64,000 bases of DNA from the IMG/VR virus record IMGVR_UViG_3300042892_003674; one strand, 5' to 3'. Position 1 is the first letter of the stretch, and each line of letters opens with the position of its first letter. Positions 74-64,000 of the stretch are shown here, piece by piece. A program made the position numbers and the translations under genes. Below the pieces are notes generated by a model, which saw only the letters and a program-made list of their open reading frames with translations, ran no database searches and was not told the origin of the DNA. This stretch comes from a virus. Its lineage: Duplodnaviria; Heunggongvirae; Uroviricota; Caudoviricetes.

Positions 74-505
74 TTATATCTTATCTACTATCTTTATATT
101 TATTCCCCAAATAGGATAATCTAAACCGGTTTTATCATTTATCACTTGGTCTAATGATAAATATCTTAATCCACTTGTAGTATTAAAACAAACGTAAATG
201 TGAGCAGTATCATCTAAATAAGGTAGTAACTCATATCTTCTTTGTAACATCTGTAAAAATGGTATGTAGTAATCTTTTACATCATTCCAATTGAATTTTT
301 GATAACCTACTGCATAGTTTTCTTCAGGTAAACCTAAACTTACGATTATATGGTTCCTCCCTGGATACTTTACTTGATCTCTTATAGATAAACTAACATT
401 ATATCCATCATCTAATAGATAAGCGAGTGAAGTCTCACAGAAGTCTTTTAACTCGTCAACCTCATCTGATTGTAAACTTTCATTAAACTTTTTTAAATGT
501 TTCAT
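74..505 (-). CDS. Orphan member of the N-leader array family (MKHLKKFNE; DFCETSLAYLLDDG; W-x-D-VKD-YYIPFL)
   Basis: Same three motifs as the 16025-27975 paralogs; TAATATATA motif just upstream. Confidence 0.85.
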   Translation of the reverse strand: MKHLKKFNESLQSDEVDELKDFCETSLAYLLDDGYNVSLSIRDQVKYPGRNHIIVSLGLPEENYAVGYQKFNWNDVKDYYIPFLQMLQRRYELLPYLDDTAHIYVCFNTTSGLRYLSLDQVINDKTGLDYPIWGINIKIVDKI

Positions 506-511
506 ATAATG

Positions 512-520
512 TATATATTA
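512..520 (-). promoter_or_regulatory. TAATATATA putative phage late-promoter motif
   Basis: Same motif recurs shortly before starts at 8519, 8796, 16025, 21717, 24857, 28654, 39301, 43687, 54392, 63656. Confidence 0.6.
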
Positions 521-535
521 TAAAATAAAATTACT

Positions 536-627: not shown

Positions 628-729
628 AGTCAGGTGGTGAAATTGGCAACCACAGCATGTAAATCCCCGGGTATTGTGTTGAAAACTTACGAGTGATTAG
701 ATATACAGGTTCGAATCCTGTCCTGACTA
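628..729 (+). ncRNA. tRNA-like RNA with no canonical anticodon arm
   Basis: Acceptor AGTCAGG/CCTGACT, D arm GTG-AAATTGGCAAC-CAC, T arm ACAGG-TTCGAAT-CCTGT, ACT-TACG-AGT extra hairpin; 51-nt centre lacks a 7-nt anticodon loop. Confidence 0.75.
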
Positions 730-8518: not shown

Positions 8519-8773
8519 ATGATAATTAGAAAATTTAATGAAGAAAATGATAATCATTGGGATGATGATTTAGAAATTGAAAAGGGTGACTTAATAAAAG
8601 TAACCATGAAATTTGAAAACTTAATTGGAGTTGGATTTGTTTACTCTGAACCAGAGGAATCAAATCATTTAATTGTTGATTTATCTTGGCAAAGTGGAGG
8701 TTCAACAGAGTGTATGGAAATTAGTGAATTGCTTGAGACCCCACACACTAAAATAGAAGTTATTAATATATAA
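8519..8773 (+). CDS. Acidic protein with N-leader (MIIRKFNEE)
   Basis: Leader; TAATATATA at 8496. Confidence 0.75.
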   Translation: MIIRKFNEENDNHWDDDLEIEKGDLIKVTMKFENLIGVGFVYSEPEESNHLIVDLSWQSGGSTECMEISELLETPHTKIEVINI

Positions 8774-8795: not shown

Positions 8796-8984
8796 ATGAA
8801 ACACATTAAAAAATTTAATGAGGATAATTCACAAACTAACACACAAGAACAAATGAAACAATTAGAAGATAAAATTATTGACTTGCTTGATGAAGCAGGT
8901 GAAAAGTTATCTAAGGATGACTTTGGAATACTTGCAGAGTCTATTATAGATTATATAGATGATATATCAAGAAGTAAAAGATAA
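8796..8984 (+). CDS. Small helical protein with N-leader (MKHIKKFNED)
   Basis: Leader; TAATATATA at 8764. Confidence 0.75.
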   Translation: MKHIKKFNEDNSQTNTQEQMKQLEDKIIDLLDEAGEKLSKDDFGILAESIIDYIDDISRSKR

Positions 8985-9033: not shown

Positions 9034-9282
9034 ATGATACACATTAAAAAATTTAATGATAAAGTAAATGAGGAATTTGGAGAACCTCTTAAAGATGTAA
9101 TGGGCACTAGAGTAGACCAACTTATAGAATATCTACAAGACTATAAACAAAAATTAGAATCAAGTGAAGATGAAGCTTATTCATTTGAGGATGAGACTGA
9201 AAAAGTAGATAAAATGTGGCAAGATGTATTCTATCCAGTACCTAATGACATCAACAGTAAAAGAAGTTCATTTAATAAATAA
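9034..9282 (+). CDS. Small acidic protein with N-leader (MIHIKKFNDKVNEE)
   Basis: Leader; AAATATATA at 9002. Confidence 0.75.
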   Translation: MIHIKKFNDKVNEEFGEPLKDVMGTRVDQLIEYLQDYKQKLESSEDEAYSFEDETEKVDKMWQDVFYPVPNDINSKRSSFNK

Positions 9283-16000: not shown

Positions 16001-16024
16001 TATGATGATTTAATATATAAGTAT

Positions 16025-16441
16025 ATGATGAGGTATTTAAAAAGTTTTATGGAGTCTGATTTTTATGTTAGGTTGAAAGGTGATGATTTGCAGGATGAAT
16101 TGGATGATGTTTGTGAGCAATTTTTGGCACCATTGGCGGATGATGGGTTTACGTATGAGGTTAGACCTGCTTGGAATGGTGAGTTTGATATAAGGTTATC
16201 TTTTACTGATGGTGGTCGTACGAATAAGTTATATGATTATTCTTTGGTGATGGATAGGTTTATCCCGTTGGTTCGTATGTTATCTAGGAGGTATGATTTA
16301 CATGATACTGTTTATTTTTATAGTACAGAGGTTTATGATATGGATAGGAAATCTTTTACGGTTGGGCAGATATTGAATGATGAGGCGCCGGATTTTTTGG
16401 TTACTACGGTTAAGTTGACGGTTAAGTCGAGGAAAGGTTAG
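16025..16441 (+). CDS. N-leader array paralog 1
   Basis: MRYLKSFMES; VCEQFLAPLADDGF; DRFIPL; TAATATATA at 16011. Confidence 0.85.
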   Translation: MMRYLKSFMESDFYVRLKGDDLQDELDDVCEQFLAPLADDGFTYEVRPAWNGEFDIRLSFTDGGRTNKLYDYSLVMDRFIPLVRMLSRRYDLHDTVYFYSTEVYDMDRKSFTVGQILNDEAPDFLVTTVKLTVKSRKG

Positions 16442-16557: not shown

Positions 16558-17028
16558 ATGAGATACATAAAGAAGTATAACGAAAGTAATTCAGAAGGTT
16601 TAACTGAGGAAGTAATAAAGGATTTCTGTGAGATGAATCTAGCTTATCTAATGGATGATGGTTTAAAGGTTTTGGTTTCACCAGATTATTTTGATTTAAA
16701 GGTTATAGATTATAAGGTGACGTTATCGTTTAGATTATTTGTTAATAAGAGGTGGGGTCAGATAAAGGATCAGGTTATACCATTTTTAACACATTTAAAG
16801 AATGAGTATGATTTAGTAGCAGATTTAGGTAATATGGGGGTTTCTGATTATTCTCAAAAGGTATTTTTAAAGAATAATATAAGGATTGAGATGATTGGTT
16901 CGGTAACTACATATCCTGATTGGTTTAATATAGATGATGTTATATCGGAGAAGATTGTTCCGGCTGGTCGTCTCCAAGACGATTATAAGATTTATACAAT
17001 TCAGTTTAAAATTAAAGGTAAGAAATGA
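16558..17028 (+). CDS. N-leader array paralog 2
   Basis: MRYIKKYNES; DFCEMNLAYLMDDG; WGQIKDQVIPFL. Confidence 0.9.
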   Translation: MRYIKKYNESNSEGLTEEVIKDFCEMNLAYLMDDGLKVLVSPDYFDLKVIDYKVTLSFRLFVNKRWGQIKDQVIPFLTHLKNEYDLVADLGNMGVSDYSQKVFLKNNIRIEMIGSVTTYPDWFNIDDVISEKIVPAGRLQDDYKIYTIQFKIKGKK

Positions 17029-17441
17029 AATACATAAAGACTAGTGAGACATTGAAATCAGAGGCAGATGTTGCTTATCAGAAAAGGATGGAGTTACAGG
17101 AGTTTGCTAATGATTGTTTAGTTTATCTTATAGATGATGAATGGTCGGTATCGGTGTGGGGATTTACTACATCGTTTAAGATTGTTTTGTTATCACCTAG
17201 GTCGGTTAAGAGAAATAGAGTTCATCATGATGATGTTACTTGGTTATCGGTAAAGAATCATGTTATTCCATTTGTTCAGATGTTATCTAATAGGTATCAT
17301 TTGGGTTATGAGGCAAGTTCATCGATTATTAGGATAGAGGCGACTTATTCGGATGATATACATATTAAGGATATAAAACAGTTAGAGGATTTATCGGATG
17401 ATATGTTATTTTATAGTTTTTCGATTGTAGTAAAAAAATAG
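17025..17441 (+). CDS. N-leader array paralog 3
   Basis: MKYIKTSE; FANDCLVYLIDD; WLSVKNHVIPF. Confidence 0.85.
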   Translation: MKYIKTSETLKSEADVAYQKRMELQEFANDCLVYLIDDEWSVSVWGFTTSFKIVLLSPRSVKRNRVHHDDVTWLSVKNHVIPFVQMLSNRYHLGYEASSSIIRIEATYSDDIHIKDIKQLEDLSDDMLFYSFSIVVKK

Positions 17442-17448: not shown

Positions 17449-17955
17449 ATGAAACATTTGAGAAAGTTTAATGAGAGTATAGATGAGAATGAATTAAGGG
17501 ATTTCTGTGAGATCAATTTAGCTTATTTGTTAGATGATGGTTTTGAGATAATGATTAGTGGTAATAATTTCAGTGGAGATTCTTTTAAAAGTATAAAAAT
17601 AACTAATCCAAGGTCTTTAGATGATCGTCAGGATGGTACGGTAAATTATTTTAAATGGAATGACATTAAAGATCATTTTATACCATTTTTTACACGTTTA
17701 TTAAATCAGTATTCACTTTATGGTAACTTTATAGTGGCGGATGGTATATTGTTTCACTATATTGCACCTATGTATGCTCATGATAGAAGTACTAATTGGT
17801 ATAAATTCTCTGGGTTAAGGACTACAAAGTTGTATAAACCATCTTTAGATAATGTATTAAATGATGAGGTATATGATGATGTAAGTACAATACATAATGG
17901 TAATCATTGTATGAATTACTTATATAGTATTGAATTATTAGTAAAAGAAAAGTAG
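17449..17955 (+). CDS. N-leader array paralog 4
   Basis: MKHLRKFNES; DFCEINLAYLLDDGF. Confidence 0.9.
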   Translation: MKHLRKFNESIDENELRDFCEINLAYLLDDGFEIMISGNNFSGDSFKSIKITNPRSLDDRQDGTVNYFKWNDIKDHFIPFFTRLLNQYSLYGNFIVADGILFHYIAPMYAHDRSTNWYKFSGLRTTKLYKPSLDNVLNDEVYDDVSTIHNGNHCMNYLYSIELLVKEK

Positions 17956-17961: not shown

Positions 17962-18420
17962 ATGAAACATTTAAGAAGGTATAATGAGAGTTTAGATAAA
18001 GATGAGTTAGAGGATTTCGTAGAGAGTTGTTTAGCTTATTTATTGGATGAGGGTTTTAATGTTTTTATTCCTAGATCATCTGGTGATGATTCTGTTGCGA
18101 TTTGGTTAGCTATTTCTAATCAATATTCTACTAATTCAACTTCATTCACTTGGGATCAGATAAAGGATCATTACATACCGTTATTGAAGTTATTATCTAA
18201 TAGGTATGATATAATTGGATTTGGTGAGCCGAGTAGAGATGGTCGTTCTATTGAGATGGATTCGACTGCTCAGATAAGATTTAGATTACAACCGGAATAT
18301 AGTAGTGATGCGTTTAGGGATTTTCCGTTATACAAGGTGATGAATGATACTTTATTTGGTTCTTATTCGTATGAGCCAAGTTTATATTCGGTGGGTATTA
18401 TGATTAAAGAAAAAAGATAG
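17962..18420 (+). CDS. N-leader array paralog 5
   Basis: MKHLRRYNES; CLAYLLDEGF. Confidence 0.9.
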   Translation: MKHLRRYNESLDKDELEDFVESCLAYLLDEGFNVFIPRSSGDDSVAIWLAISNQYSTNSTSFTWDQIKDHYIPLLKLLSNRYDIIGFGEPSRDGRSIEMDSTAQIRFRLQPEYSSDAFRDFPLYKVMNDTLFGSYSYEPSLYSVGIMIKEKR

Positions 18421-18422
18421 GT

Positions 18423-18935
18423 ATGAAACATTTAGTACGAAGTACTCTTTACGGAGGTAAAGTAAGAAGATTCAATGAAGGTTTGTCTTCTAATGAATTT
18501 GATGAGTTAAAAGATTTTAGTGAAAGTTGTTTAGCTTATTTATTGGATGAGGGTTTTGAGCTTGAGTTGGTGGATAGATATGGTCGTGATTCAAATGACC
18601 CTTCGTATGAGATTGACTCGGATTACTTTTGGATTGATCTTTATGGTCCGTTTATTACTCAGCCTGATATGTATGGTGCAGTTCCTAATGATAGAAGTTA
18701 TAGTTGGAATCAGATAAAAGATTATTATATTCCATTTCTTCAGTTATTAAAGGCGAGGTATGTATTAGTAGATGATGAAAGAAGTTATAAAGGAGATGTG
18801 GTTTACTTTAAGATACTAGAAGGCGCAGATGTTGATACGGCATTTAAAGAGTTTAAACTTGACGAGGTTATAGGAGATAAGATTACATTAGATAGTATCT
18901 TTTCAGTATCAATAAAAGTAAGTAGTAAGATATGA
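18423..18935 (+). CDS. N-leader array paralog 6 (10-aa insertion in leader)
   Basis: MKHL[VRSTLYGGKV]RRFNE. Confidence 0.9.
   Translation: MKHLVRSTLYGGKVRRFNEGLSSNEFDELKDFSESCLAYLLDEGFELELVDRYGRDSNDPSYEIDSDYFWIDLYGPFITQPDMYGAVPNDRSYSWNQIKDYYIPFLQLLKARYVLVDDERSYKGDVVYFKILEGADVDTAFKEFKLDEVIGDKITLDSIFSVSIKVSSKI
18433..18464. mobile_element. 28-bp double-hairpin insertion flanked by TA
   Basis: TA-GTACGAAGTACTCTTTACGGAGGTAAAG-TA. Confidence 0.55.
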
Positions 18936-19459
18936 AACATTTGAGAAAGTTTAGTACGAAGTACTCTCTGCTAGAACAGAGTAATGAGAGTTATACTCAG
19001 CAAGATTTAGATGAGTTAAAAGAGTTTTGTGATGATCACTTATCATATTTGATTGATGAGGATTATAAGGTTTCTGTTCAAGATTTTGAGACAAATGCTG
19101 GTAGTGTATTACAGGTTGTTGTTAGACCACCGAAGGTTATGAGAAAGAATAATTGGGCAACAAGATTAAAAACGAATTTAATTGAGGAAGAGTTGGGAAC
19201 ACCTTTTTCACATTTCAAGGATAGGTTGATACCATTTGTTTATATGTTATTGAAGGATTATCGTTTGATAACCAATGAAGAGATGGATAGAATGGAATTA
19301 GGTCATGATGAGGGTGGTATGGGTTTTGCGATGCCTAATCCTAATAGTAACATATTAGATACGAAAATGGTACGTGTTAGTTCTTTAGAACATTTAGAAC
19401 AGGTTGAAGATAATCTAATGGTTTCAACATTTTATATAAGAATAAAAAAGAAAGATTAG
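18932..19459 (+). CDS. N-leader array paralog 7 (10-aa insertion in leader)
   Basis: MKHLRKF[STKYSLLEQS]NES. Confidence 0.9.
   Translation: MKHLRKFSTKYSLLEQSNESYTQQDLDELKEFCDDHLSYLIDEDYKVSVQDFETNAGSVLQVVVRPPKVMRKNNWATRLKTNLIEEELGTPFSHFKDRLIPFVYMLLKDYRLITNEEMDRMELGHDEGGMGFAMPNPNSNILDTKMVRVSSLEHLEQVEDNLMVSTFYIRIKKKD
18952..18983. mobile_element. 28-bp double-hairpin insertion flanked by TA
   Basis: TA-GTACGAAGTACTCTCTGCTAGAACAGAG-TA. Confidence 0.55.
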
Positions 19460-21246: not shown

Positions 21247-21702
21247 ATGAAACATTTAAGAAAGTTCAATGAGGGGTTAAAAGAAGAGTTACAGGATTTC
21301 TGTGAGACTTACCTAGCTTATTTGATTGATGAGGGGTTTAAAGTAAGGATTTCAAAGTTTGAAGGAGATGACTTTCATCAGATAATGTTGGGTTATGCAA
21401 CAGACGGTTCGGGATATGGTAATAATAATCGTTTATGGTCAGAGATGAAGGATCAGGTTTTGCCGTTCTTACATTTTTTATTTAAGGATTACGAATTGTA
21501 TTGGGATAACGGTGTAGAAGCACCGATGGGTATTATTTATCATTTAATGGGTGGTTCTGGTACATCTGGTTCTCTTAGACAAAGTAGTCTAACATTGAAG
21601 CAGATAAATGATTTACCTGATGATACTGAGATAGCTACTTTATTTATTAGGGTTATTAAAAAGGAAGAAAAGGTTGAAAAAGCTTGGTTTAGAAAATTTT
21701 AA
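21247..21702 (+). CDS. N-leader array paralog 8
   Basis: MKHLRKFNEG; DFCETYLAYLIDEGF. Confidence 0.9.
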   Translation: MKHLRKFNEGLKEELQDFCETYLAYLIDEGFKVRISKFEGDDFHQIMLGYATDGSGYGNNNRLWSEMKDQVLPFLHFLFKDYELYWDNGVEAPMGIIYHLMGGSGTSGSLRQSSLTLKQINDLPDDTEIATLFIRVIKKEEKVEKAWFRKF

Positions 21703-21716: not shown

Positions 21717-22163
21717 ATGAAGTATTTAAGAAGTATTTTTGAAGAGGTCAATCAAAATGAGTATGAAGAGTTAAAAGATTTCTGTGAGATGTATTTAGCT
21801 TACTTATTAGATGATGGTGATTGGCGAATAGACATTTCTATGAGAACTCAGGTTTATCCACATACTGGTTTTTATGACGTTATGATTTGGAGAAGATATG
21901 AGACGAATGCAGATGGATCACATAGTTATCCTAATTGTACTTGGGATGATGTATCTGATTATTTTATACCATTTTTCAAAGTTTTGATAGATAATTATGA
22001 GTTAGTGCCTAGTGTTTCTCGTAGTATGAAAACGGGAGAGCTTGTTGATAATTTAGTGGAGTTTTCAGGGGCAAATGTACCAAAGGAAAAGATATTAGGT
22101 AATTTGATACCGGGTAATCAACCAGCTAGAAAAATAAGTTTTAAAGTAAAACGTAAGATATGA
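21717..22163 (+). CDS. N-leader array paralog 9
   Basis: MKYLRSIFEE; TAATATATA at 21704. Confidence 0.9.
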   Translation: MKYLRSIFEEVNQNEYEELKDFCEMYLAYLLDDGDWRIDISMRTQVYPHTGFYDVMIWRRYETNADGSHSYPNCTWDDVSDYFIPFFKVLIDNYELVPSVSRSMKTGELVDNLVEFSGANVPKEKILGNLIPGNQPARKISFKVKRKI

Positions 22164-22612
22164 GGTATTTAAAGAAGATTTTCGAGAACGATTTATATAA
22201 ACAGGTTGATTCGGATGAGTTAAAAGATTTCTGTGAGACTTACTTAGCTTATTTATTGGACGATACTAGTTTTAAGATAGAGGTTATTGATACAGAAAAG
22301 TGGGATTCATATACTATCTGGTTGGGTAAGACTTTAGTAGATCGTCGTATTCAGACTTTTAGTTGGGATGACATTAAAGATTATTATATTCCATTTGTTA
22401 CGATTTTATCAAGAGAATATGATTTGAATGATATAGATTTAGATCAGAGAAGTTCGAGTATTATTATCAATTTTATGTCTGGTAATCAATTATTTGTTAC
22501 TGCGTCTGGTATTGAAGATTGGGATGGTAGACTTACAAAAAGACCAGATTTTTATAACGGTAATGGTATCAAAGAGATTGGTATTGTAGTAAAAAATACT
22601 ATAAAGATATGA
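22160..22612 (+). CDS. N-leader array paralog 10
   Basis: MRYLKKIFEN; WDDIKDYYIPF. Confidence 0.9.
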   Translation: MRYLKKIFENDLYKQVDSDELKDFCETYLAYLLDDTSFKIEVIDTEKWDSYTIWLGKTLVDRRIQTFSWDDIKDYYIPFVTILSREYDLNDIDLDQRSSSIIINFMSGNQLFVTASGIEDWDGRLTKRPDFYNGNGIKEIGIVVKNTIKI

Positions 22613-23067
22613 GGTATTTAAAAACATTTGAGTCTATTGATTTAGAGAAAGATTTAAGAGATTTTTGTGAGACTTATCTAGCTTATTTGTTAGATGGTGA
22701 TTTTGAATTATCTGTTATTTGGCAGGGTCATAATCCTTTTCTGGTCCCATATAACCGTTATAATATAAATCTAGTTAAGTTAAATGATTATGGAGCTACT
22801 GGATTTACTTGGAATGAGGTTAAAGATTACTATATTCCTTTTTTACATATGTTGAATAAAGATTATGAGATAATGGATGAAGGTGAAGCAAGTAGAAACG
22901 CGGGGCAGTGGGATGTTCCTTGTATTTGTTTATATAATGGTAGTCAAAACTTTTGTGTTTCGGTTAAGGATATTTTATCTGGTGAGCCTTTACCTGGTAG
23001 ATATGATGATAGACCTTTATTAGAGATTACACTTCAGGTTGCGTTCAAAAATAAATTGGTAGAATGA
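22609..23067 (+). CDS. N-leader array paralog 11
   Basis: MRYLKTFES; WNEVKDYYIPFL. Confidence 0.9.
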   Translation: MRYLKTFESIDLEKDLRDFCETYLAYLLDGDFELSVIWQGHNPFLVPYNRYNINLVKLNDYGATGFTWNEVKDYYIPFLHMLNKDYEIMDEGEASRNAGQWDVPCICLYNGSQNFCVSVKDILSGEPLPGRYDDRPLLEITLQVAFKNKLVE

Positions 23068-23945
23068 GATATTTAAAAAGATTTAATGAGTCAGTTGATT
23101 TAAAATCACAACTACGTGATTTTAGTGAGTCTTATCTAGTTTATTTGTTAGATGATGGTTATACGGTAAATATTACACAAGCAAGTGATCATTCAGGTGG
23201 TGGTGGTTTGCCACCAAATGCATTTTTGATAAAATTGAGTAATGACATTGATTTTACTTGGTTAGATGTTAAAGAGTCATATATTCCATTTTTACATATG
23301 TTAAATAGAGACTACAATATAGTAGATCAGTCTATAATGATTTATGATTATAATGATGATACTGAGTTTGGTATTGAAACAATTTTATCTGGTAATCCTT
23401 TACCATTTGATAATAAAAGTTTAATAGAGATTTTAGTTTGGGTCACTTTTGATAAACCTATTAAAGAGTCTGTTGAATTGAAGACAGATGATGTAGAACA
23501 TTATTTGGTTGAGTTATTGGATTCTGGATTTGATGATGTCAGGGTTACTAAAAGTGCTGATAGATATAAGGATGTTGAACCAATGACTGCAATTTCTATG
23601 GAGAGAAAGCTTACTACTGATGAGTGGCAATCTATTTTAAGAACTGGTATTATATATGAGAATGTGATAATTGGTGTGAGATCTGAACCGATGAGAGTAT
23701 TTACTTCTAGTCAATTTAAGAAGCCAGTTCCTTTATCTATTTTTAAATCTGATATATTGAATCAGGTTGAGTTTTTCGCACAGGATGCTGCAGATAAGAT
23801 TTTATTGAGTTTATCTGATAAGTTTGTTAGTAAGAAGATTGTGATGTCTTTTAAGGCAGGTGCAGGTCAGGTTCAACGATATAATTTTGGTGACATTTCG
23901 ATTAGATTACAGATTATTTTAACAGAAAAGGAAGATACAAAATGA
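23064..23945 (+). CDS. N-leader array paralog 12, two domains joined at IKE-S
   Basis: Second YLVELLDSGF motif after KPIKESV. Confidence 0.9.
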   Translation: MRYLKRFNESVDLKSQLRDFSESYLVYLLDDGYTVNITQASDHSGGGGLPPNAFLIKLSNDIDFTWLDVKESYIPFLHMLNRDYNIVDQSIMIYDYNDDTEFGIETILSGNPLPFDNKSLIEILVWVTFDKPIKESVELKTDDVEHYLVELLDSGFDDVRVTKSADRYKDVEPMTAISMERKLTTDEWQSILRTGIIYENVIIGVRSEPMRVFTSSQFKKPVPLSIFKSDILNQVEFFAQDAADKILLSLSDKFVSKKIVMSFKAGAGQVQRYNFGDISIRLQIILTEKEDTK

Positions 23946-24370
23946 AATATTTAAAGAGGATTTTTGAGAATTTAGATAAGGATGAGTTACAAGATTTCTG
24001 TGAGATGAACTTAGCTTATTTATTGGATAATGAAGATTTTAGGATAGACATTGAATACTTTGATGACTTGATAGGTCAGTATTTGGTTGTTATTAAATTG
24101 GTTAAAATGGTTGAGCTTAGTGCTGGTGGAAGAATGACGACGATGTATCAGTGGCAAGAGGTTAAAGATTATATTGTACCGTTTATTGTACAATTGAATA
24201 AGAGTTATAGTTTGAATACAACTTGGAATGATAATAAAGGTTCGATTACTATTCGTCAGGAACAAGAGTGGAGAAACTTTTCTTATGAGAAGTTTATGAG
24301 GGTTGTTGATAATTGGTATGAAGATGATGATGAGATAAGATATATTGAAATAATATTAGATAATAAATGA
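23942..24370 (+). CDS. N-leader array paralog 13
   Basis: MKYLKRIFEN. Confidence 0.9.
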   Translation: MKYLKRIFENLDKDELQDFCEMNLAYLLDNEDFRIDIEYFDDLIGQYLVVIKLVKMVELSAGGRMTTMYQWQEVKDYIVPFIVQLNKSYSLNTTWNDNKGSITIRQEQEWRNFSYEKFMRVVDNWYEDDDEIRYIEIILDNK

Positions 24371-24840
24371 AACACTTAAAAAAATACAATGAAGCGGTTG
24401 GTGGTGTGAATGGAGTTAATGATTTCTGTGAGGGTTACTTAGCAAATATTTTAGATGATGATTCTTATCAGTTTAATGTAACAGAGCAAATGTCTGGCCA
24501 TAGGGTATCACCATCGTATTATTTTAGTTTATACAAAGTAGGTAATGGTGCATATGATATAATTCAGTGGGATGAGATTAAGGATCAGATTATACCATTT
24601 TTACATATGTTGATAAGAGAGTATAGTATTGAACCTATGAGACTTATAGATCAATCGAAGCTAACCTATCAAACAAAAAACGTTTATATAGATGATAATC
24701 CTAGAAACAGAACGATTCAGTTTAACAGGTATTTACCGGATACTTATAGTTCTGATCTTTATTATATGGATGTGAGGAATGTTATAAAGGACGAGGATGT
24801 TCCTGAAAAATTCTATCGAATACAATTACAATTTTACTAA
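24367..24840 (+). CDS. N-leader array paralog 14
   Basis: MKHLKKYNEA. Confidence 0.9.
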   Translation: MKHLKKYNEAVGGVNGVNDFCEGYLANILDDDSYQFNVTEQMSGHRVSPSYYFSLYKVGNGAYDIIQWDEIKDQIIPFLHMLIREYSIEPMRLIDQSKLTYQTKNVYIDDNPRNRTIQFNRYLPDTYSSDLYYMDVRNVIKDEDVPEKFYRIQLQFY

Positions 24841-24856: not shown

Positions 24857-25324
24857 ATGAAATACTTAAAACCATTTAACGAAGCCGTAACACAAGACGA
24901 CATTGAATTATGTTGTGTTGATTTATTTGATGATGGATTTGAATTAAATGGTTATAATAAGACTGGTAAAACAATAATTCAGTTAGTGAAGAATATTACT
25001 TCTTCATTACCAGACGATCAATCTAATATAGTTGTAGTTGATGAACATTCAAAGAATTATAGACAAGGTACAATAACTATATCAGGTAGAAATTTTGATC
25101 ACGTTATTGCAAAAGAAAGATCTAGTGATCTACCATTTACTGAGAATGAGAATAAACTTATAAGTCAAGTTAGTGATGCTGCAAATCTATTGAGACATTA
25201 TAGTAGTACTAATGGTGGGACTGATCGTGTTGTTATTACTATAACAAGTAGAGGAATACAGAATCCTATGAACTTTGAATATGAAAGATACTTAACACAA
25301 ATAAATATATTATTCTATATATGA
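24857..25324 (+). CDS. N-leader array paralog 15 (LCCVDL subfamily)
   Basis: Start moved to MKYLKPFNEA; TAATATATA at 24843. Confidence 0.9.
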   Translation: MKYLKPFNEAVTQDDIELCCVDLFDDGFELNGYNKTGKTIIQLVKNITSSLPDDQSNIVVVDEHSKNYRQGTITISGRNFDHVIAKERSSDLPFTENENKLISQVSDAANLLRHYSSTNGGTDRVVITITSRGIQNPMNFEYERYLTQINILFYI

Positions 25325-25830
25325 GATACTTAAAAGGGTTTAATGAAGCTATTGAACAAGACAACATTGATTTATGTTGTGTTGATTTATATGATGATGG
25401 ATTTCAGTTACTAGGTTATAACAAGACTGGTAATACCTTGATTTCATTACAGAAGAAAATAGTTAGTCAATTAGATCAGTGGGATGGTCACACAGGAACA
25501 GATACTAGAGCAGGAGTTATGTGGGATGAACATTTAAGTAAGTATCAACCGGGAACTATTACTATTACTGGTGATAATTTTGATAAGGTTGAAACTAGTT
25601 TTAGACAAACTTGTGGTTGGGATAGAACTAGACCATTACCATTTACTGATGATGAGAATAAACTTATAAATCAAGTTACTGATGCGGCTAGTATATTGAC
25701 ACATTATAGTGATACTGAGGTAAAAAGAAAAAGAGTTGAAATACAAATTTCTAGTAGAGGTTTACAAAATCCTATGAACTTTGAATATGATAAATACTTA
25801 ACAATATTAAAGGTAACATTCTTCTTATGA
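25321..25830 (+). CDS. N-leader array paralog 16 (close duplicate of 15)
   Basis: LCCVDL, GYNKTG, LPFT..ENKLI, QNPMNFEY shared. Confidence 0.9.
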   Translation: MRYLKGFNEAIEQDNIDLCCVDLYDDGFQLLGYNKTGNTLISLQKKIVSQLDQWDGHTGTDTRAGVMWDEHLSKYQPGTITITGDNFDKVETSFRQTCGWDRTRPLPFTDDENKLINQVTDAASILTHYSDTEVKRKRVEIQISSRGLQNPMNFEYDKYLTILKVTFFL

Positions 25831-26768
25831 GATACTTAAAGAGATTTAATGAGGCAATTGAACCAGATGAGATAAAAGACTTCTGTGAGCAGTATCTAGC
25901 TTATTTGTTAGATGATGGTTATGCTTTAGCTTTTAGAGAATCTGGTAGAATAACTCAAGTAGACTTTGTTAAACCAAAGGAAAATCCTTTACACGGTAGA
26001 TGGAGTCCTGGTTTTGGTGGACCGGTTGATTGGATGGATTGGGATCATATAAAAGATAGTTTTATTCCTTTTTTAAAGATGTTAGATAAGGAGTATGATG
26101 TTAAGGATAATCTTATAACTTTTCAATGTCCTAGCGCGATACAAATTCAAATATCTTTTCAGGATGTTATTGATGATAAAGTAAAAGATATACTTCATGA
26201 CAAACTTACATTAGATGCTAGAGATAGAATTAGTTCTGTTAGAATAAATGTTATCGATCATAGTGTTAAGGATTATGCTTGGCAGGTTAAAGAAGCTAAA
26301 GAAGATTGGAGAAGAAACTTCAGTGATGATGAGTTACAAGAAGTTTGTGATACATTTTTACCTTATCTTTATGATGAGGGTTTTGTTGTACACACCACGG
26401 TGCCTACTTATTTTATGTTTAAGAAAAACATTATTACACTTTGGAAAGAACAAGAAAAAGGTGATGGTCGAGGATTAGAGACTCTTCCATTTTATTGGCA
26501 TGAGATAAAAGATAGATTTCTACCACTTTTTGATTATTTGAATAAGAATTATCCGTTGGGTAAGGTTAGATTGGTTCATTATTATAATTCTTGGGAAAGA
26601 AAAGAGAACAAGAAAGAAGTGGTTTTTAAATCGGATAATGATAAAGAATCTTGGAGTGGACTTCCATTTAGTAAGTTTGAGGAGATTATGTCGAGAGATG
26701 CCGCTTATAGAAGACCAATGAAGATTGGTGAGATAATAATAGAAGTACAAAATTTAGATGAGTTATGA
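25827..26768 (+). CDS. N-leader array paralog 17, two domains joined at VKE-A
   Basis: Second VCDTFLPYLYDEGF and WHEIKDRFLPL. Confidence 0.9.
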   Translation: MRYLKRFNEAIEPDEIKDFCEQYLAYLLDDGYALAFRESGRITQVDFVKPKENPLHGRWSPGFGGPVDWMDWDHIKDSFIPFLKMLDKEYDVKDNLITFQCPSAIQIQISFQDVIDDKVKDILHDKLTLDARDRISSVRINVIDHSVKDYAWQVKEAKEDWRRNFSDDELQEVCDTFLPYLYDEGFVVHTTVPTYFMFKKNIITLWKEQEKGDGRGLETLPFYWHEIKDRFLPLFDYLNKNYPLGKVRLVHYYNSWERKENKKEVVFKSDNDKESWSGLPFSKFEEIMSRDAAYRRPMKIGEIIIEVQNLDEL

Positions 26769-27154
26769 GATATATAAAGTTATTTGAGGGTTTTAAAGAT
26801 GATTTACTTGGATTTACTCAGGACCGCTTAGCTTATCTTATGGATGATGGATTTGATCTTACAACAAATGACACACAGAATGGTTACTGGCGTGAATATA
26901 ATGTTGATTGTGGAAAAATTTCAATAGTTAAACGTTCAGGTTTCACTTGGGAGGAAATTACTGATAGATTCTCACCGTATATTTATATGTTGAATAAAGA
27001 ATATAGTATTTTAGAAATAGTATTTCATCAGAGTGGTGGAAGACAACAACAATATGATACTAGAAAAGATATAGAAGAACTTGTAAGTGGTGAATCGGAT
27101 CAGTATCTTACCAATAAGTTGTATTGGATGATAACAATAATAGTAAACAAATGA
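26765..27154 (+). CDS. N-leader array paralog 18
   Basis: MRYIKLFEG; LAYLMDDGF. Confidence 0.9.
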   Translation: MRYIKLFEGFKDDLLGFTQDRLAYLMDDGFDLTTNDTQNGYWREYNVDCGKISIVKRSGFTWEEITDRFSPYIYMLNKEYSILEIVFHQSGGRQQQYDTRKDIEELVSGESDQYLTNKLYWMITIIVNK

Positions 27155-36326: not shown

Positions 36327-37153
36327 TAGACATAGATTATTCAAACGGAAAGATTAAGATAAACACCGGTGATTTAGCTGGATTATTCACTAATCTACCT
36401 TTAAAATTTAAAATAAAGAAAGTTATTTCAAAAGAAATAGTTTGGGAAACTGACTTATATAGTTTTATGTGGGCGGAATTTGGTACAAATGAGATCAATG
36501 ATGTTATCGTAGAAGATAGTTTAGGTAATTTTGTTTATCAGTATCACTGGGATGTAATTCAACACGGTTCTATCTTTTATAAATCATTGTGGTTATATTG
36601 TAAGTCATTGATAAATCGTGGTGTGAAACCACGTGGAGTTGTTGTGGGAACACATGATGGAGAGTTTGGTGAATGGGTTCCATTAGTGAGAAACTTTATG
36701 TCTGATATGTTATTAGTAGAAGCATCACAGAAACAATTTGATAAACTTCATCAGAACTTTATTGATAAACCAGGTATTATATTTCTAAATGATTTGATTA
36801 CAACTGATGGCTCTGATGTTGAGTTCTTTGAAGGTGGTGCTGGTTACACGAATACTGTGGTTGAGAGAGTTATTAGACATTGGGAAACAGAGGAAGTTCA
36901 TTCATCAAAAAGAACATCGACTAGTTTTAATACTTTGATTGAGAGCTATGGTAAGGTTGATTGGTTACATTTAGATGTAGAGGGATTGGATGCAAAGTTA
37001 TTGATGTCATTAAAGGAAGAGAATATACCTAATTTTATAATCTTTGAAGATTATAATTTGGACACTGAAGAGTTTAGTAAAGTATCTACTTTTTTTAAGG
37101 ATAGAGGGTTTAGATTACATTCGGAAGGTGGAATATGTATGGCTTTTAAATAA
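36323..37153 (+). CDS. FkbM-family methyltransferase
   Basis: VVGTHDG, LLVEA, LHLDVEGLD, IIFE. Confidence 0.8.
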   Translation: MIDIDYSNGKIKINTGDLAGLFTNLPLKFKIKKVISKEIVWETDLYSFMWAEFGTNEINDVIVEDSLGNFVYQYHWDVIQHGSIFYKSLWLYCKSLINRGVKPRGVVVGTHDGEFGEWVPLVRNFMSDMLLVEASQKQFDKLHQNFIDKPGIIFLNDLITTDGSDVEFFEGGAGYTNTVVERVIRHWETEEVHSSKRTSTSFNTLIESYGKVDWLHLDVEGLDAKLLMSLKEENIPNFIIFEDYNLDTEEFSKVSTFFKDRGFRLHSEGGICMAFK

Positions 37154-37535
37154 AAAACCATCCAGATGGGTTATGTGATATATAATATTCTGATAAGGAT
37201 AAATATAATCTAACTTCTTCTTCATCAGCACCAGTCATATCCATTATTTTATGCTTAATAGTAGGATATTCAATCTTTATTTTATATAAAGATTCTTGAA
37301 TTCTATTAAATAAGTTAGATCTCATCTCAACTCTTTTAATGAATTCATTTATTGAATTGGATAAATTGATTGATGAACTATCTGCCATATCAATAGTAAT
37401 CTCACAAGTTTTATTATCTGTGTGAAACTTAATTATAAAGTTATCTTCGTCGATAAAATCAACGAAACACATTTCAATATAATCTTTATCAATTATATCT
37501 TGGTCTATATTTTCAAATAGTTTTATGTATTTCAT
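37146..37535 (-). CDS. N-leader protein (MKYIKLFEN), distant array relative
   Basis: IEMCFVDFIDE. Confidence 0.8.
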   Translation of the reverse strand: MKYIKLFENIDQDIIDKDYIEMCFVDFIDEDNFIIKFHTDNKTCEITIDMADSSSINLSNSINEFIKRVEMRSNLFNRIQESLYKIKIEYPTIKHKIMDMTGADEEEVRLYLSLSEYYISHNPSGWFFI

Positions 37536-37536: not shown

Positions 37537-38019
37537 TTATATTTCGTTTTTAACTATTGTAATTGAAATTGATATAAAGTCTCTACTCCATACTTTTTCA
37601 TCTAATACATGAAAGTAAGTATCATTTGCAGTAACTGCGTCTTGTCTAATAATCTTCTCGATCTTTGCACCATTCCATCTTCTGTCTAACAAAGCTAGAA
37701 GTGTTTCAAAACAGTCAGTTATCTTATCTTTAAATTCTTCGGACTTATTGTTCTGTACTGTTCTTTGGAAATCTACTACATCTTCATCTTGGTCCTTATG
37801 TCTTACAAGTCTAATATAAACAACATTACATTGATTATAACTTTCAGCCATACGAGTTGTATAATCATTGATACGTGACTTAACTCTTTGTTGTAATAGA
37901 ATTTGTGGTGAAAATCCTTCATCTATCAAATCAACAAAAATCATTTTAATTGTCTCTCTGAATTGATCTAGTTCTTCTTTACCTTCTTTTAACGATTCAA
38001 GTGTTTTTACGTATCTCAT
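37537..38019 (-). CDS. N-leader protein (MRYVKTLES), distant array relative
   Basis: MIFVDLIDEGF. Confidence 0.8.
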   Translation of the reverse strand: MRYVKTLESLKEGKEELDQFRETIKMIFVDLIDEGFSPQILLQQRVKSRINDYTTRMAESYNQCNVVYIRLVRHKDQDEDVVDFQRTVQNNKSEEFKDKITDCFETLLALLDRRWNGAKIEKIIRQDAVTANDTYFHVLDEKVWSRDFISISITIVKNEI

Positions 38020-39301: not shown

Positions 39302-39364
39302 ATTGTATATATTAAAGTTTTTAAACTAAAAGTAATTTTTTAATATAAAAAAGAAAACACAATT

Positions 39365-46636: not shown

Positions 46637-47170
46637 TTATTTTTTAATTATCTCATAGTTATTATTATCTAACCATTCTATAAATTCAGAGTTTAATCCA
46701 CCCTGTTCAGCATCTGGATTTTGTGACCAGAAATTGTATAGTATACCATCAAATCCTTTCCAATTACCATCTTTAAATATTTCAAAATCATTATCTTCTA
46801 ACCAATCTGATAATCCTATGTAATCTTTATCATAATTACTTCTCCAAAAATCATATAATAATTTACCACTTTTAGAGTTTATTGATATATCTAAATCATC
46901 ATCACTTGCTATATAACTTTCATTCCAAGAAGGTTTTCCCATACCATCTTGCCACCCACCTCTACTATCGTTACTATCATCATAATGTTTATCATCTCTT
47001 GGATACATTCCGTCTGGATCTTCTTTACGAACTCTTTCTTCTCTTTCTTCTCTTTTCTTAGCATCTTCTTTAGCACTATGTGGGAAGTTAGAAATTTGAT
47101 TTCTTTTAGCTTTTTCTTTATCTTTCTTATCAAGATCAGAATAATCTTCAAATGTTTTTAAGTTTTTCAT
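46637..47170 (-). CDS. N-leader protein (MKNLKTFED) with internal NE-S site and duplicated LYxFW..WL motif
   Basis: Translation. Confidence 0.8.
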   Translation of the reverse strand: MKNLKTFEDYSDLDKKDKEKAKRNQISNFPHSAKEDAKKREEREERVRKEDPDGMYPRDDKHYDDSNDSRGGWQDGMGKPSWNESYIASDDDLDISINSKSGKLLYDFWRSNYDKDYIGLSDWLEDNDFEIFKDGNWKGFDGILYNFWSQNPDAEQGGLNSEFIEWLDNNNYEIIKK

Positions 47171-47176: not shown

Positions 47177-47542
47177 TTATTTTAATTGTTTTAGTATAAC
47201 TTGAATAACAGAATCTACATCATCTGCATTATAATCACCAAGATTTTCTGTTATACCACCATCTTTTTCTACAGTAACTACTACAGTTGTGTTGTTATCA
47301 GTCAGTGATAAACTAAAAGTTAAGTCCTCTAGTACAAACTTTAAGTAGTCATTAAACATTTTACCGAATCTAACATCCGATAGTTCACGTATTTTAGTGC
47401 CATATATGTCACGTTGTAATTTATACCATATTTCAATCAGTGATGTGGTAGGTTTCAATAAAGTATCTTTAGAATCTCCTCTTTCAATGAAAACTGAGCC
47501 ATACTTTCCACGACTTTCGTTAAAACTTTTTAAGTATTTCAT
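47177..47542 (-). CDS. N-leader protein (MKYLKSFNES)
   Basis: Start moved to leader; TTATATATA upstream. Confidence 0.8.
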   Translation of the reverse strand: MKYLKSFNESRGKYGSVFIERGDSKDTLLKPTTSLIEIWYKLQRDIYGTKIRELSDVRFGKMFNDYLKFVLEDLTFSLSLTDNNTTVVVTVEKDGGITENLGDYNADDVDSVIQVILKQLK

Positions 47543-58459: not shown

Positions 58460-58519
58460 AAAAATCAATTTTTTTTTTTATATATAGATTACAATAAACT
58501 ATAAACTATTACATTTTTT

Positions 58520-58735: not shown

Positions 58736-58736
58736 A

Positions 58737-59075
58737 CTATTGTAAGTCATTTTCATTTATTTGTTCATCCTCTGGTTGAACAATACTCTCATCTACTACA
58801 GGTATATCAATAATATCTGCAACCGGTCCACCTAAAGTTGGTCCATCAAATGTCAATAAGTCACCATCAAATGACAAAGGTCCACCCATTAAAGGACCAT
58901 TCATCATTGGTCCTGCTGGTACATTATCAAATGCTCCTTTTTCTTGTTCTTGTTTAATTAAATTCATTATGAACTCTTTTTGTGCTTTTTGAATTTTAGT
59001 ACTCTCATTCTTAACTGCGGTATTACGTGCAGCAACTTTTTGTTTGTGATTCTTTCTTGTTTTTGACTTTGGCAT
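58737..59075 (-). CDS. Hypothetical protein, basic N-terminus and acidic tail
   Basis: MPKSKTRKNHKQKV; GP repeats. Confidence 0.75.
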   Translation of the reverse strand: MPKSKTRKNHKQKVAARNTAVKNESTKIQKAQKEFIMNLIKQEQEKGAFDNVPAGPMMNGPLMGGPLSFDGDLLTFDGPTLGGPVADIIDIPVVDESIVQPEDEQINENDLQ

Positions 59076-59123
59076 AATTTTTAGTATTTTATTTCTAATT
59101 ATATCTATTTAGTCAAATAAGTT

Positions 59124-62100: not shown

Positions 62101-63608
62101 GGTTTATATGATTTTTTCATAGCTTCTGGAAAAGCTTCTTTGTTATTTACTTTGTTATAGATAGAGGCTTTGGTGTGTCCATATAAATAAGTCAATTCTA
62201 TCTGAGGTTTTATATCTAAACGACCATTTATATCTTTATTTATTTGTACTTTCTCTTCTTTGGATAAATCTACATTACCATTCAAACCTATATCAATTAG
62301 ATCATTATAATATTTTTTGTGACTTTCTGATTCAATTGTATCAAAACTTTGTATTACAGGATCTTTGGGTATTGCTGGATTACCAGTTAAAATATTTTTA
62401 TCACCTGCTTTATACCTCTTGATTGAGTAGTTCACACCAGGACTTTTTTTACTAACTTTAGTATTTATACCACCAAATAAAGTTTGTTCTTGCCAAATAA
62501 AGTTAGGTGTTCCAAAGTTTGGCCACTCAATCATATCTTGTGGTAGTTTCCATTTTTCAGAACGTAAAATCCACTCTGCTCTTTTAAATGGAGTTACTTC
62601 CTCTGTTCTATCATTACCCTTTAAACCAATAGTTTTTAAATACTCATTGGGATCTAAAGCCTCACCTTTTGAATTATAAATACCAAATATCATTGTCTTT
62701 GGTTTATATGGGTCAAATGGGTCGGTATCTTCAATTTGTACAGGATCAACCTCTGGTAAAGGTTCATCTGCGGGTAGATTTATATAAGTATACGTATAAT
62801 CTAAATTAGGTTCAAATACCCCTGTTGAATAAACTGTTGAAAGAACCTTCCAATATTGACTGTTGAATCCACTTGTATTAGTGTTTTGATTTTTAATATC
62901 TAAACTAACATCATTAGGGTTTGTAGTTTCATTTTGTGCCTTAGTTTCTTTTGGTTTAGTACTTGCTTGAATTGAATTAAGTTTCTGTAACTTTTCTTTT
63001 GTTTCTGCAGCACCTTTATAACCAATTGCTTTTGGTCTTGATGTACCAGAACCTGCATTACCTACTGGTTTTCTTGACTTAACCGTTAAAGGGTCACCAA
63101 AGAAAGGCATGACTCTTGCTATAACATCTTCTGCTTTGGCAACTGAACCAATAGCAACACCAACAATTTCCATAAATGGCTTTTGTGTATCAAAGATAGA
63201 TTGTAAGGTAGTTTTCTCAAATGCCTTAAACCCGGTCATATTAAATTCATCCGGTATTTTAATTTGATCTTTAGGTATTACAAATTTATTACCTTTCTTA
63301 AACTTACTTATATCACCAACATCAATTTTATTCTGTTTAGCAAATTGTCTAAATACTGCTTCATCTTTAGATGCAATAGGACTATTCATATTTTTGAATA
63401 ACATATTCCTAATAAAGGAATCACTGATTCCTAAATCTCCTTCTGCAAACTTTTGAATATAATCTGTGTTTGGTAGTACTAAACCCGTTGAAGAGTTTAG
63501 TCCAATAGACTTAGATGCTTCACTAAGAGGTCCAAAGAAAGCTAATGATACGTTGTAATTTCCACTACCGAGTGGTCCGTAATACGGATATTGTGCTGAT
63601 AATCCCAT
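59124..63608 (-). CDS. Large hypothetical protein (about 1490 aa), probably virion-associated
   Basis: Long ORF, amphipathic helices; GAATATATA just before ATG 63608. Confidence 0.7.
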   Translation of the reverse strand: MGLSAQYPYYGPLGSGNYNVSLAFFGPLSEASKSIGLNSSTGLVLPNTDYIQKFAEGDLGISDSFIRNMLFKNMNSPIASKDEAVFRQFAKQNKIDVGDISKFKKGNKFVIPKDQIKIPDEFNMTGFKAFEKTTLQSIFDTQKPFMEIVGVAIGSVAKAEDVIARVMPFFGDPLTVKSRKPVGNAGSGTSRPKAIGYKGAAETKEKLQKLNSIQASTKPKETKAQNETTNPNDVSLDIKNQNTNTSGFNSQYWKVLSTVYSTGVFEPNLDYTYTYINLPADEPLPEVDPVQIEDTDPFDPYKPKTMIFGIYNSKGEALDPNEYLKTIGLKGNDRTEEVTPFKRAEWILRSEKWKLPQDMIEWPNFGTPNFIWQEQTLFGGINTKVSKKSPGVNYSIKRYKAGDKNILTGNPAIPKDPVIQSFDTIESESHKKYYNDLIDIGLNGNVDLSKEEKVQINKDINGRLDIKPQIELTYLYGHTKASIYNKVNNKEAFPEAMKKSYKPFEVFIPDAAKDPELAKLAVQRGSKAGMIWIDPEADYDMKVIRIDPVTSIEYLDAVGTPEIRTSIRKFVKNRVKFSFSNGATFSLSISKNGADTQIFDKISDYTFENWNYENNTIKNTNTYDISVWSELAPTRFTNNHYQWSVERAPLKIVIPGTNGASFSMQLQTPDYYRITKKDGIWYYSSTANNYIKNGINFLGDTKAAVYSEDGIIKRWYYIYNETFKGPNTQYNLPAFGIERSISINYEKDTIDVTDKSIPIWRLKVDDRYSNSKIIDPTQVTNDFLTTADLFTKDPLWYGHGAPDDPQTLGIIKRYALTDLDEESYYIVEGILKNDNEFDTDENGKRKNAGRGKGGGGWYRLPHAIGACGVFIRLLIDIGVKLLPKISKLMALFQNPAKFVTDIMSEKLTKNFEFLSSDAISTFQKAGQLRSQIGNKDIDIDNIKQNIDSIRIESSKLSSKVVTDAQGKSDLEQSQAKKMVEDINKKTEERISKLQKVVDKKKQAVAKLREHYKNSILSNYVYVDETNLQSIFTLDGGATIPLSVFGAKLNFGIAMNMGSVPNKPPLKLIFPDSKNIFKNVQYLIDNAKPTAKNTGQPLENIVKQEVLDLKTPVQSQLSALDKQPPFKNKTINFNEDVNKVQIKFEDGSVEYIPKDSLQTFVLTNQNKYNFIYVTEEINKTFVDVDTLLESGTQEDLDKAKEKLDEAKKNFPNNSAIDDKLKELSDKNESFAKNLQPLLKAILGLTTFPIKVVADIIKWMFDFFASLTNPMTLASKMKEFLSFQWILQFFTPTGILAIFGLKFSPLTLIPYAAAAAAASGKAVGGKAGKVGDKLASGKADLSKYISVNMIPTLPTYTADQYKNLLKGVQPLRLLTIFQMIQKFINGVIDFIWSLLGIEALIKAPHIKIVPEDTTNMSPEDIKKVLDGIEPKGVTGSNIPNPITGSNTSAVDSLNPVVQGFMYEVKLPDGTTKSFLDRDQLDLFIEQNKEFDFDFTF

Positions 63609-63655
63609 TTTGTATATATTCAAACAAAAGGTATTCCTAAAATAATATATAAGTT

Positions 63656-64000
63656 ATGAAGTATTTAAAACGATTTGATGAGAGATTAGGTATATCTCAA
63701 GACATGGAGCAACAAGTTGATGATTATATGAAAACTATTAGAAGTAAACCAATTTCAAAAGTTTTTAAATTACTTTATAAATGTGATTTAGGTAATTATT
63801 ATTTTAAACTAGTGATAGATCCGAAAATAACTAGTGAAGGTTATTTTACTAGTGATCCAAGTTCAATTACTGGATTAGAAATCCATTTAAAAGATAGAGA
63901 GGATGAATCAACATTATTACATGAGGTTAAACATTTAGACTTTCATTTAAGAAAAAAAGGTAAAACCAAAACAAACTTTACTAAAGCACAAAAGTCTATA
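63656..64000 (+). CDS. N-leader protein with HExxH motif (partial, runs off window)
   Basis: MKYLKRFDE...TLLHEVKH; TAATATATA at 63643. Confidence 0.8.
   Translation, partial: MKYLKRFDERLGISQDMEQQVDDYMKTIRSKPISKVFKLLYKCDLGNYYFKLVIDPKITSEGYFTSDPSSITGLEIHLKDREDESTLLHEVKHLDFHLRKKGKTKTNFTKAQKSI

Follow-up and report, generated by a model that had tools for sequence, protein, structure and literature searches.

A portable N-terminal leader on 28 proteins of a 64 kb Caudoviricetes sequence: a candidate T4-type address peptide for the phage head

The prohead protease of bacteriophage T4 recognizes I/L-x-E sites and cuts after the Glu. The capsid targeting sequence (CTS) of this phage reads MKTYQEFIAE (PMC8442874), in which residues 4 and 7 are the main determinants of targeting and residues 8 and 10 those of processing (PMC9026906). 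Amongst giant phages, the head and ejection proteins of phiKZ, 201phi2-1 and SPN3US carry long N-terminal propeptides, of 20 to >100 residues, which are cut at A/S/G-x-E (PMC5694885). Here we describe a short N-terminal leader that recurs at 28 gene starts within a stretch of 64,000 nt (hereafter the window) from the IMG/VR virus record IMGVR_UViG_3300042892_003674 (Caudoviricetes), and which may be a portable address peptide with a capsid-targeting role of the T4 type. The searchable literature yielded no description of a tag of this kind in huge phages.

A shared leader on about 28 proteins had been claimed in the preliminary description of this DNA, and the claim holds at all of the coordinates, which were each checked: 28 of 28 named starts bear M-K/R-H/Y-L/I-K/R-x-F/Y-(N)-E or a near variant of it. 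In its strict form, defined as [KR][HY][LI][KR]x[FY]x{0,1}E directly after Met1, the pattern opens 17 of 114 genes in the window, 48 of 990 in LR745206 and 52 of 1009 in LR756502, the latter two being complete, uncultivated huge phages (634,780 and 642,428 bp, respectively) that were used as relatives and subjected to the same simple gene calling as the window. The strict motif thereby occupies 5-15 % of N-termini, compared with an internal rate of 1-5e-5 per residue. The only internal strict hit amongst 20,414 residues of the window is a mis-called start, and most of the seven (LR745206) and two (LR756502) seemingly internal hits in the complete relatives are preceded by Met; as this is true of almost all internal hits, these starts appear to have been called too early. 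A chance origin of the leader is excluded by these N-terminal and internal frequencies. The possibility that the motif is an internal polyprotein cleavage site was also considered and rejected, with essentially zero internal copies being present.

A wider pattern adds a long form, MKHLKxYK[IL]FES, and brings the number of tagged genes to ~80-100 per complete genome (~10 %). In nearly all copies position 4 is L or I and position 7 is F or Y, and the Glu at position 8 or 9 is near-invariant. When viruses and prokaryotes were surveyed with a degenerate DNA pattern for MK[HY]LKxFNE, at least 120 stretches were recovered from IMG/VR, many on contigs of 150-500 kb among the matches listed, as against 29 stretches in 596 Gb of prokaryote genomes, over half of which come from one metagenome-assembled genome (MAG). 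The leader tag is virus-specific, with prokaryote genomes being almost devoid of the pattern. Several JALOAD01 contigs (MAG 'Ca. Muiribacterium halophilum' bin 137) display up to five leader-pattern matches per 8 kb, and this MAG probably holds mis-binned huge-phage DNA.

The leader genes of the window are given below; a box is a promoter-like TAATATATA-type element, or, for the first gene, TAATATATAC.

74..505 (-): leader gene with array-type domain, MKHLKKFNES; TAATATATAC box at 511-520
8519..8773 (+): small acidic protein, degenerate leader MIIRKFNEE, one residue short; box at 8496-8505
8796..8984 (+): small acidic protein, MKHIKKFNED; box at 8764-8773
9034..9282 (+): small acidic protein, degenerate leader MIHIKKFNDK, with D for E; box at 9002-9011
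16028..16441 (+): array gene 1, MRYLKSFMES; box at 16011-16020
16558..17028 (+): array gene 2, MRYIKKYNES
17025..17441 (+): array gene 3, degenerate leader MKYIKTSET, no aromatic residue at 7
17449..17955 (+): array gene 4, MKHLRKFNES
17962..18420 (+): array gene 5, MKHLRRYNES
18423..18935 (+): array gene 6, split leader MKHL-VRSTLYGGKV-RRFNEG; 30 bp double-hairpin insert at 18435-18464
18932..19459 (+): array gene 7, split leader MKHLRKF-STKYSLLEQS-NES; 30 bp insert at 18953-18982
21247..21702 (+): array gene 8, MKHLRKFNEG, the member modelled
21717..22163 (+): array gene 9, MKYLRSIFEE; box at 21704-21713
22160..22612 (+): array gene 10, MRYLKKIFEN
22609..23067 (+): array gene 11, MRYLKTFES
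23064..23945 (+): array gene 12, MRYLKRFNES, two domains, the second copy without leader
23942..24370 (+): array gene 13, MKYLKRIFEN
24367..24840 (+): array gene 14, MKHLKKYNEA
24857..25324 (+): array gene 15, MKYLKPFNEA; box at 24843-24852
25321..25830 (+): array gene 16, MRYLKGFNEA
25827..26768 (+): array gene 17, MRYLKRFNEA, two domains, the second copy without leader
26765..27154 (+): array gene 18, MRYIKLFEG
27151..27975 (+): array gene 19, MRYIKLFEV, two domains, the second copy without leader
37146..37535 (-): divergent array-family member, MKYIKLFEN
37537..38019 (-): divergent array-family member (…VDLIDEGF), leader-like MRYVKTLES, with L for F; operon headed by the box at 39305-39314
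46637..47170 (-): unrelated cargo (ISNFPH…EDPDGMYPRDD family), MKNLKTFED
47177..47542 (-): unrelated cargo, MKYLKSFNES
63656..64000 (+): HExxH protein, MKYLKRFDE, cut by the window end; box at 63643-63652

The LR745206 ortholog of the last of these retains both the leader and HELKH. Within the array the leader is imperfect in 3 of 19 genes, being without an aromatic residue at position 7 in 17025, and interrupted by a 30 bp in-frame insertion in each of 18423 and 18932.

The window has a GC content of 30 % and dense small open reading frames (ORFs). Its 1499-residue protein is matched only in the published uncultivated huge phages LR745206 (37 %) and LR756502 (33 %), and the block at 55116-63623 shares synteny with LR745206 (38-66 % identity at the amino-acid level). 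A gp21-like protease, with the same x-x-E sites in capsid and scaffold genes, had been anticipated elsewhere in the genome; a protease of this family and comparable Φ-N-E sites occur in five related huge phages, and the window itself, over all 64 kb, contains no head gene. In LR745206 and LR756502, as well as in LR756501, LR756504 and LR756500, three more distant huge phages compared for head genes, a portal, a protease-scaffold of 630-810 residues and a capsid protein are encoded in a row. The protease part matches the head-maturation protease family phrog_207 at 2.7e-30, has homologs in 713 phage records, mostly from T4-superfamily phages, and bears the catalytic His/Ser motifs GEFDHP and VSSRAAG, corresponding to GELNHP and VSSRGLG in T4 gp21. 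Even its N-terminus, VLIIE-9, resembles that of T4 gp21 (LLIE-9).

Behind the protease, the protease-scaffold of LR745206 (198546-200669) and of its relatives harbours ~12 tandem 14-residue repeats, xYSEYIAENLDK, the core of which (YSEYIAE) is close to TYQEFIAE of the T4 CTS and to …EWLAEN of T4 gp22. That the scaffold repeat is a copy of the leader was rejected, as AYSEYIAE is nearer to the T4 CTS and only the Φ-N-E-S junction sites resemble the leader. Such a site, [LIV]-N-E-[SA], follows the protease domain in five of five huge phages, at the place where T4 gp21 reads RIVNEG, and additional Φ-N-E-S sites flank the scaffold repeats. The capsid protein is a gp23 homolog (E 2e-8), whose N-terminal KKWSPVLEN aligns with NKWKPLLEG of T4. 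The mature capsid domain opens with a long stretch free of Glu, and across the five phages the last Glu ahead of this stretch belongs to I-N-E↓N in the nearer relatives and to M-N-E↓N, I-H-E↓N or L-Y-E↓N in the more distant phages. Because a gp21-type protease, a scaffold and a gp23-type capsid protein occur with matching sites, the head machinery of this clade appears to be T4-like, and its likely cleavage sites would end in N-E, as does the common F-N-E↓S leader. With regard to the leader itself, the hydrophobic and aromatic residues at positions 4 and 7 are those on which T4 targeting depends, which is a match in sequence only.

A second link between leader and head genes is provided by promoter-like boxes. 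Thirteen strict TAATATATA-type boxes lie in the window, all of them intergenic, on the coding strand of the next gene, and 4-26 nt upstream of a start codon, with distances of 4-8 or 20-26 nt at many starts:

39305..39314 (-): TAATATATA-type box, heading the operon that holds 37537 and 37146
511, 8496, 8764, 9002, 16011, 21704, 24843, 40175, 43674, 53995, 54359 and 63643: the other TAATATATA-type boxes

Seven of these directly precede leader or leader-like genes, and an eighth heads the 37537-37146 operon. The window also encodes a DNA methyltransferase and a collagen-like tail fibre (48514-53958), the gene for the latter having a close variant of the box, and the box itself stands ahead of the portal, protease-scaffold and capsid genes of LR745206 and LR756502. 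Taking the three sequence sets together, it is found within 60 nt of 46 % of tagged genes compared with 18 % of other genes (odds ratio 3.8, p 2e-16), whilst a host-type TAnnTTTG element is seen for 2.5 % of tagged and 9.3 % of other genes (p 4e-4). Of the genes that follow the TAnnTTTG element, the largest concern DNA metabolism (DNA ligase, HNH nuclease, nucleotidyltransferase, NUDIX); of those that follow the TAATATATA box, the largest encode big unknown proteins and one head-decoration homolog. Since the two elements precede different sets of genes, they yield a two-class promoter map of the window. TAnnTTTG elements (e.g. TATCTTTG, TATATTTG) stand, for example, upstream of 1511, 4446, 9356, 29401, 34047 (-) and 45650, and point to a probable Bacteroidota host. 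As the tagged genes share their box with head genes and are depleted in TAnnTTTG elements, they presumably belong to the structural, late class, a timing deduced from the promoter box. Expression at early times only, named beforehand as an observation that would speak against packaging, is therefore not what the promoter class suggests, the tagged genes matching the head genes in this respect by inference.

The reading we consider best is that the leader is a portable address peptide with a T4-type capsid-targeting role; the case is circumstantial, and we would place it a little short of an even chance. Tagged proteins would be made late, alongside the head proteins, and their basic, amphipathic N-terminus, with its hydrophobic residue at 4 and aromatic residue at 7, would dock on the acidic repeats of the scaffold, to which the gp21-type protease is fused. 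Each tagged protein would then be enclosed as the capsid shell forms, the protease would cut after the conserved Glu (…F-N-E↓S) to free the cargo inside the head, and the freed cargo would pass into the cell along with the DNA. All four of these steps, namely docking, encapsidation, cleavage and injection, are ones that we infer. The loading signal like that of T4 put forward in the preliminary description thus gains from the portability of the peptide, its CTS-like residues, the protease, scaffold and capsid protein of the relatives and the shared promoter box, and loses from the non-canonical site of the LKxFE form and the acidity of the cargo.

Several observations weigh against capsid loading. 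The tagged proteins are small, at a median of ~155 residues, and acidic, with a median isoelectric point of ~5, whereas the T4 internal proteins are basic. One copy each of the tagged proteins encoded per genome would amount to 1.6-1.8 MDa, and, to our knowledge, 80-100 different tagged proteins per genome would be unprecedented as head cargo. The residue two before the Glu (P3) is F/Y in the F-N-E form of the leader and variable in the LKxFE form, as opposed to I/L/M at the scaffold and capsid sites; the short LKxFE form, without a hydrophobic P3, hence has no canonical cleavage site, whilst P3 is I or L in the long YK[IL]FE form. Φ-N-E-S sites are modestly enriched in the protease-scaffold, with three of them in 692 residues (uncorrected p 0.002). 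The TAATATATA box, which marks a broad class of presumably late genes, also precedes 18 % of untagged genes, and two array members, together with homologs in other genomes, keep 10-residue insertions within the leader. Finally, the argument from a T4-type head is built on relatives that are 34-66 % identical in shared proteins.

The insertions concerned, at 18435-18464 and 18953-18982, are each 30 bp in length, in-frame, placed inside the leader codons and inserted at a TA. Both consist of two small hairpins, GTAC-GAA-GTAC followed by either CTTTAC…GTAAAG or CTCTG…CAGAG. The insert of gene 18932 is also found in homologs from other genomes (P0075 and P0117), where the matching insert has a compensated first hairpin, and where P0075 reads SAMHSLLEQS. 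In sequence, these inserts look like a tiny mobile element.

A second portable tag was observed at the C-terminus, (W)R[DE]x[KQ][LI]xx[LI][LG] (also written R[DE]xK[IL]xx[IL]L), on 17 of 110 window proteins, with examples at 744-941, 7341-7610, 9902-10153, 41404-41625 and 42296-42892. Each complete relative has ~95 proteins that carry it (~10 %), where ~1 would be expected by chance. It and the N-terminal leader are mutually exclusive, co-occurring once compared with ~21 expected. Genes with the C-terminal tag lie behind the TAATATATA box in only 1.4 % of cases, as against 18 %, and so are of a different class, which is probably the early one.

Of the alternatives, that which survives best holds that the leader addresses or docks its proteins to some other late destination, be it another part of the virion, a phage-built compartment, a chaperone or export, with its likeness to the T4 CTS being convergent; we consider this less probable than capsid targeting, though well ahead of the other alternatives. 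The portable, peptide-level, virus-specific and late-class character of the tag would fit such a destination equally well, as would cargo that is acidic and very numerous, and the mutually exclusive C-terminal tag, which goes with the opposite class of promoter, could be a sign of broader protein sorting. Despite this, no receptor or compartment gene was identified for it, and only the head module shares sequence logic with the tag, in the form of Φ-N-E sites, acidic repeats and a T4-type protease. A membrane-like segment is present in only 2 of 152 tagged proteins, the remainder being soluble, which makes export or membrane targeting unlikely.

A further alternative is that the leader is the inherited N-terminal helix of one large, fast-diverging superfamily, for instance an oligomerization or stability element, whose portability is apparent and stems from divergence and a few recombinations. 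It draws on the fact that a single fast-evolving family, with the core DELxDFCExxLAYLLDDGF…WxxIKDxxIPF, supplies 22 of the 28 leaders in the window (all 19 array genes, along with 74-505, 37146 and 37537), and that an iterative profile gathers 89 members from the three genome sets, nearly all of them tagged. The earlier statement that what follows the leader can be unrelated is thereby narrowed: six window proteins (8519, 8796, 9034, 46637, 47177 and 63656) do fall outside the array family in BLAST and profile searches, whilst the other 22 are diverged members of one family. The AlphaFold model of 21247-21702, from 39 sequences, predicts an α/β domain with a mean predicted local distance difference test score (pLDDT) of 79. 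In this model the leader prolongs helix 1, as the inherited-helix explanation would have it, but residues 1-7 score below 50 and are not packed on the domain, suggesting that the leader is not part of the array-domain fold.

The range of cargo also speaks against that explanation. In the three two-domain array proteins the second domain copy is leaderless and starts at the core of the domain, and a few array-family members in the relatives likewise begin directly there. With the first 12 residues trimmed, 152 leader proteins fall into 109 BLAST clusters. Portability in IMG/VR was judged from 90 ORFs starting at the matches listed: here the leader and a linker of 15-30 residues precede a complete ART-PolyVal domain (residues 24-186 of 190), a SET domain (37-141, full profile) and ankyrin repeats, and tagged ORFs can also bear GNAT, HNH, GIY-YIG, methyltransferase, LRR and DUF7487 domains, which begin at a greater distance from the N-terminus. 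Conversely, one cargo family has two types of tag in different lineages. Homologs of the 46637 protein bear the leader in its 8-residue or its 9-residue form, and on other contigs (one of 631,525 bp) the same cargo stands behind a different N-terminus, MNDIINFSKFF or MDGVKHFSDFF, in which the hydrophobic residue at 4 and Phe7 are kept, Glu9 is often present and the lysines are lost. Judged from these sequences, the leader is a portable N-terminal module, and its descent as a mere family helix is improbable.

The AlphaFold model of the 46637 family has a mean pLDDT of 52 and is uninformative. Foldseek searches of the array domain against PDB and BFVD returned nothing at E ≤ 0.001, and its best Z in VIA-align was 6.6, a value still within noise; several proteins of the tail terminator and neck reached Z ~5-5.7. 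The leader proteins of the window have zero matches in Pfam and PHROGs, and just 2 of 54 leader proteins from LR745206 match Pfam. No cultured relative was found by megablast, or by tblastn of an array protein and a widespread leader family, against 50,697 phage records.

Selection acts on the leader peptide and not on its nucleotides. When 81 leaders are aligned in register, synonymous codons track genome usage, with GAA and GAG making up 53 and 47 % of E9 codons (66/34 genome-wide), and CAT and CAC 51 and 49 % of H3 codons (69/31 genome-wide), and the substitutions are conservative (K/R, H/Y, L/I, F/Y). As the codons are free and the replacements conservative, an RNA motif or a recombination site is ruled out as the main explanation; a motif at the RNA or DNA level was accordingly rejected by the synonymous-codon test. 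That the conserved start acts on mRNA or translation, as an initiation enhancer for nearly leaderless late transcripts, a regulator site or a recombination hotspot, is very improbable: the box does end 4-8 nt before many leader ATGs, such that many transcripts may have almost no 5′ untranslated region, and the leader codons are very AT-rich, but synonymous sites in the leader are no more constrained than those in the rest of the genome, changes are conservative at the protein level, array-internal genes without a box of their own keep the tag, the same box spacing occurs with no leader at 38021, 43687, 39869 and 54008, and the most highly expressed genes, e.g. the capsid gene, are without it.

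The tag is more stable than what it is attached to. Between LR745206 and LR756502, whose proteases are 82 % identical, a homolog exists for 27 % of the LR745206 leader proteins compared with 53 % of its other proteins, and 13 ortholog pairs show 73 % identity over the first nine residues as against 48 % over the remainder. Conservation of the tag alongside rapid turnover of the cargo is what an accessory, arms-race set of proteins would look like.

Two further features of the window were observed. The 19-gene array is interrupted at 19462-21162 (+) by a 566-residue protein that has a signal-peptide-like start, Ig_7 (CHU_C-associated) and C-type lectin domains, and no leader. At 628-729 (+) lies a tRNA-like gene of 102 nt, which scores 37.5 bits against Rfam RF00005 (gathering threshold 29) and is not called by ARAGORN; its anticodon region and T arm are separated by ~30 additional bases, for which a long variable arm, an intron or an insertion may account.

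Returning to capsid targeting as the preferred role of the leader, its broadest form would be that huge Bacteroidota-type phages load about one-tenth of their proteome, i.e. 80-100 small proteins per genome, into the capsid by a T4-like address and inject these with the DNA, whilst the C-terminal tag marks an equally large early set. We advance this wider claim only tentatively, and regard it as somewhat more likely to fail than to hold. If true, the injected set would include ADP-ribosyltransferase, SET, GNAT, ankyrin and nuclease effectors, together with hypervariable arrays such as the 19 genes of the window, and it would far exceed any virion-delivered effector arsenal known so far. Should capsid loading be correct, a sequence rule would allow the injected proteome to be read from the genomes of uncultivated huge phages, hundreds of small proteins would be marked as first-minute host-takeover or anti-defence factors, part of the reason for large genome size would be at hand, and the leader could serve as a packaging handle for engineering. 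Should the destination prove different, the leader would still be an undescribed sorting signal on ~10 % of proteins in a major phage clade.

Polyvalent proteins of phages and conjugative elements have been proposed to travel with DNA into the recipient cell. These ART-PolyVal effectors (Pfam PF18760) resemble the leader proteins in having ADP-ribosyltransferase, methyltransferase and nuclease domains, but are giant multidomain fusions, whereas the leader effectors are separate small proteins, each with its own tag. The cargo-loading peptides of encapsulins are similarly short and portable, and bring diverse cargo into an HK97-fold shell; they differ in being usually C-terminal, in binding the shell directly, in not being removed, and in being non-viral. 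Closer are the phiKZ-like giant phages, which have many paralogous internal head proteins and a gp21-related protease that cuts after Glu, with propeptides inferred to target proteins into the prohead (PMC5694885). In these phages there is no single shared short motif, and ~8-20 proteins are processed rather than ~100. The leader is also unlike the phiKZ/SPN3US propeptides in that its conserved part comprises 9-12 residues, with an aromatic or aliphatic P3.

The nearest counterpart is the T4 CTS, a peptide of ~10 residues which, as with the leader, stands at Met1 of unrelated proteins (IPI/IPII/IPIII and Alt; Mullaney & Black 1996, reviewed in PMC9026906). Both share M1, K2, a hydrophobic residue at 4, an aromatic residue at 7 and a terminal Glu, and in both cases the phage lineage has a protease of the gp21 family, a capsid protein of the gp23 type and a scaffold with many Φ-x-E sites. 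The cargo is likewise comparable, being fast-evolving, encoded in part by tandem hypervariable genes, and including an ADP-ribosyltransferase (Alt in T4). Differences are that the leader Glu is at 8 or 9 and not at 10, that P3 is F/Y or variable in place of the T4 Ile, and that the leader has basic residues at 2, 5 and 6. For a 9-mer, common descent would be no more than conjecture. In addition, the cargo is acidic where that of T4 is basic, and 80-100 tagged genes per genome compare with a handful in T4.

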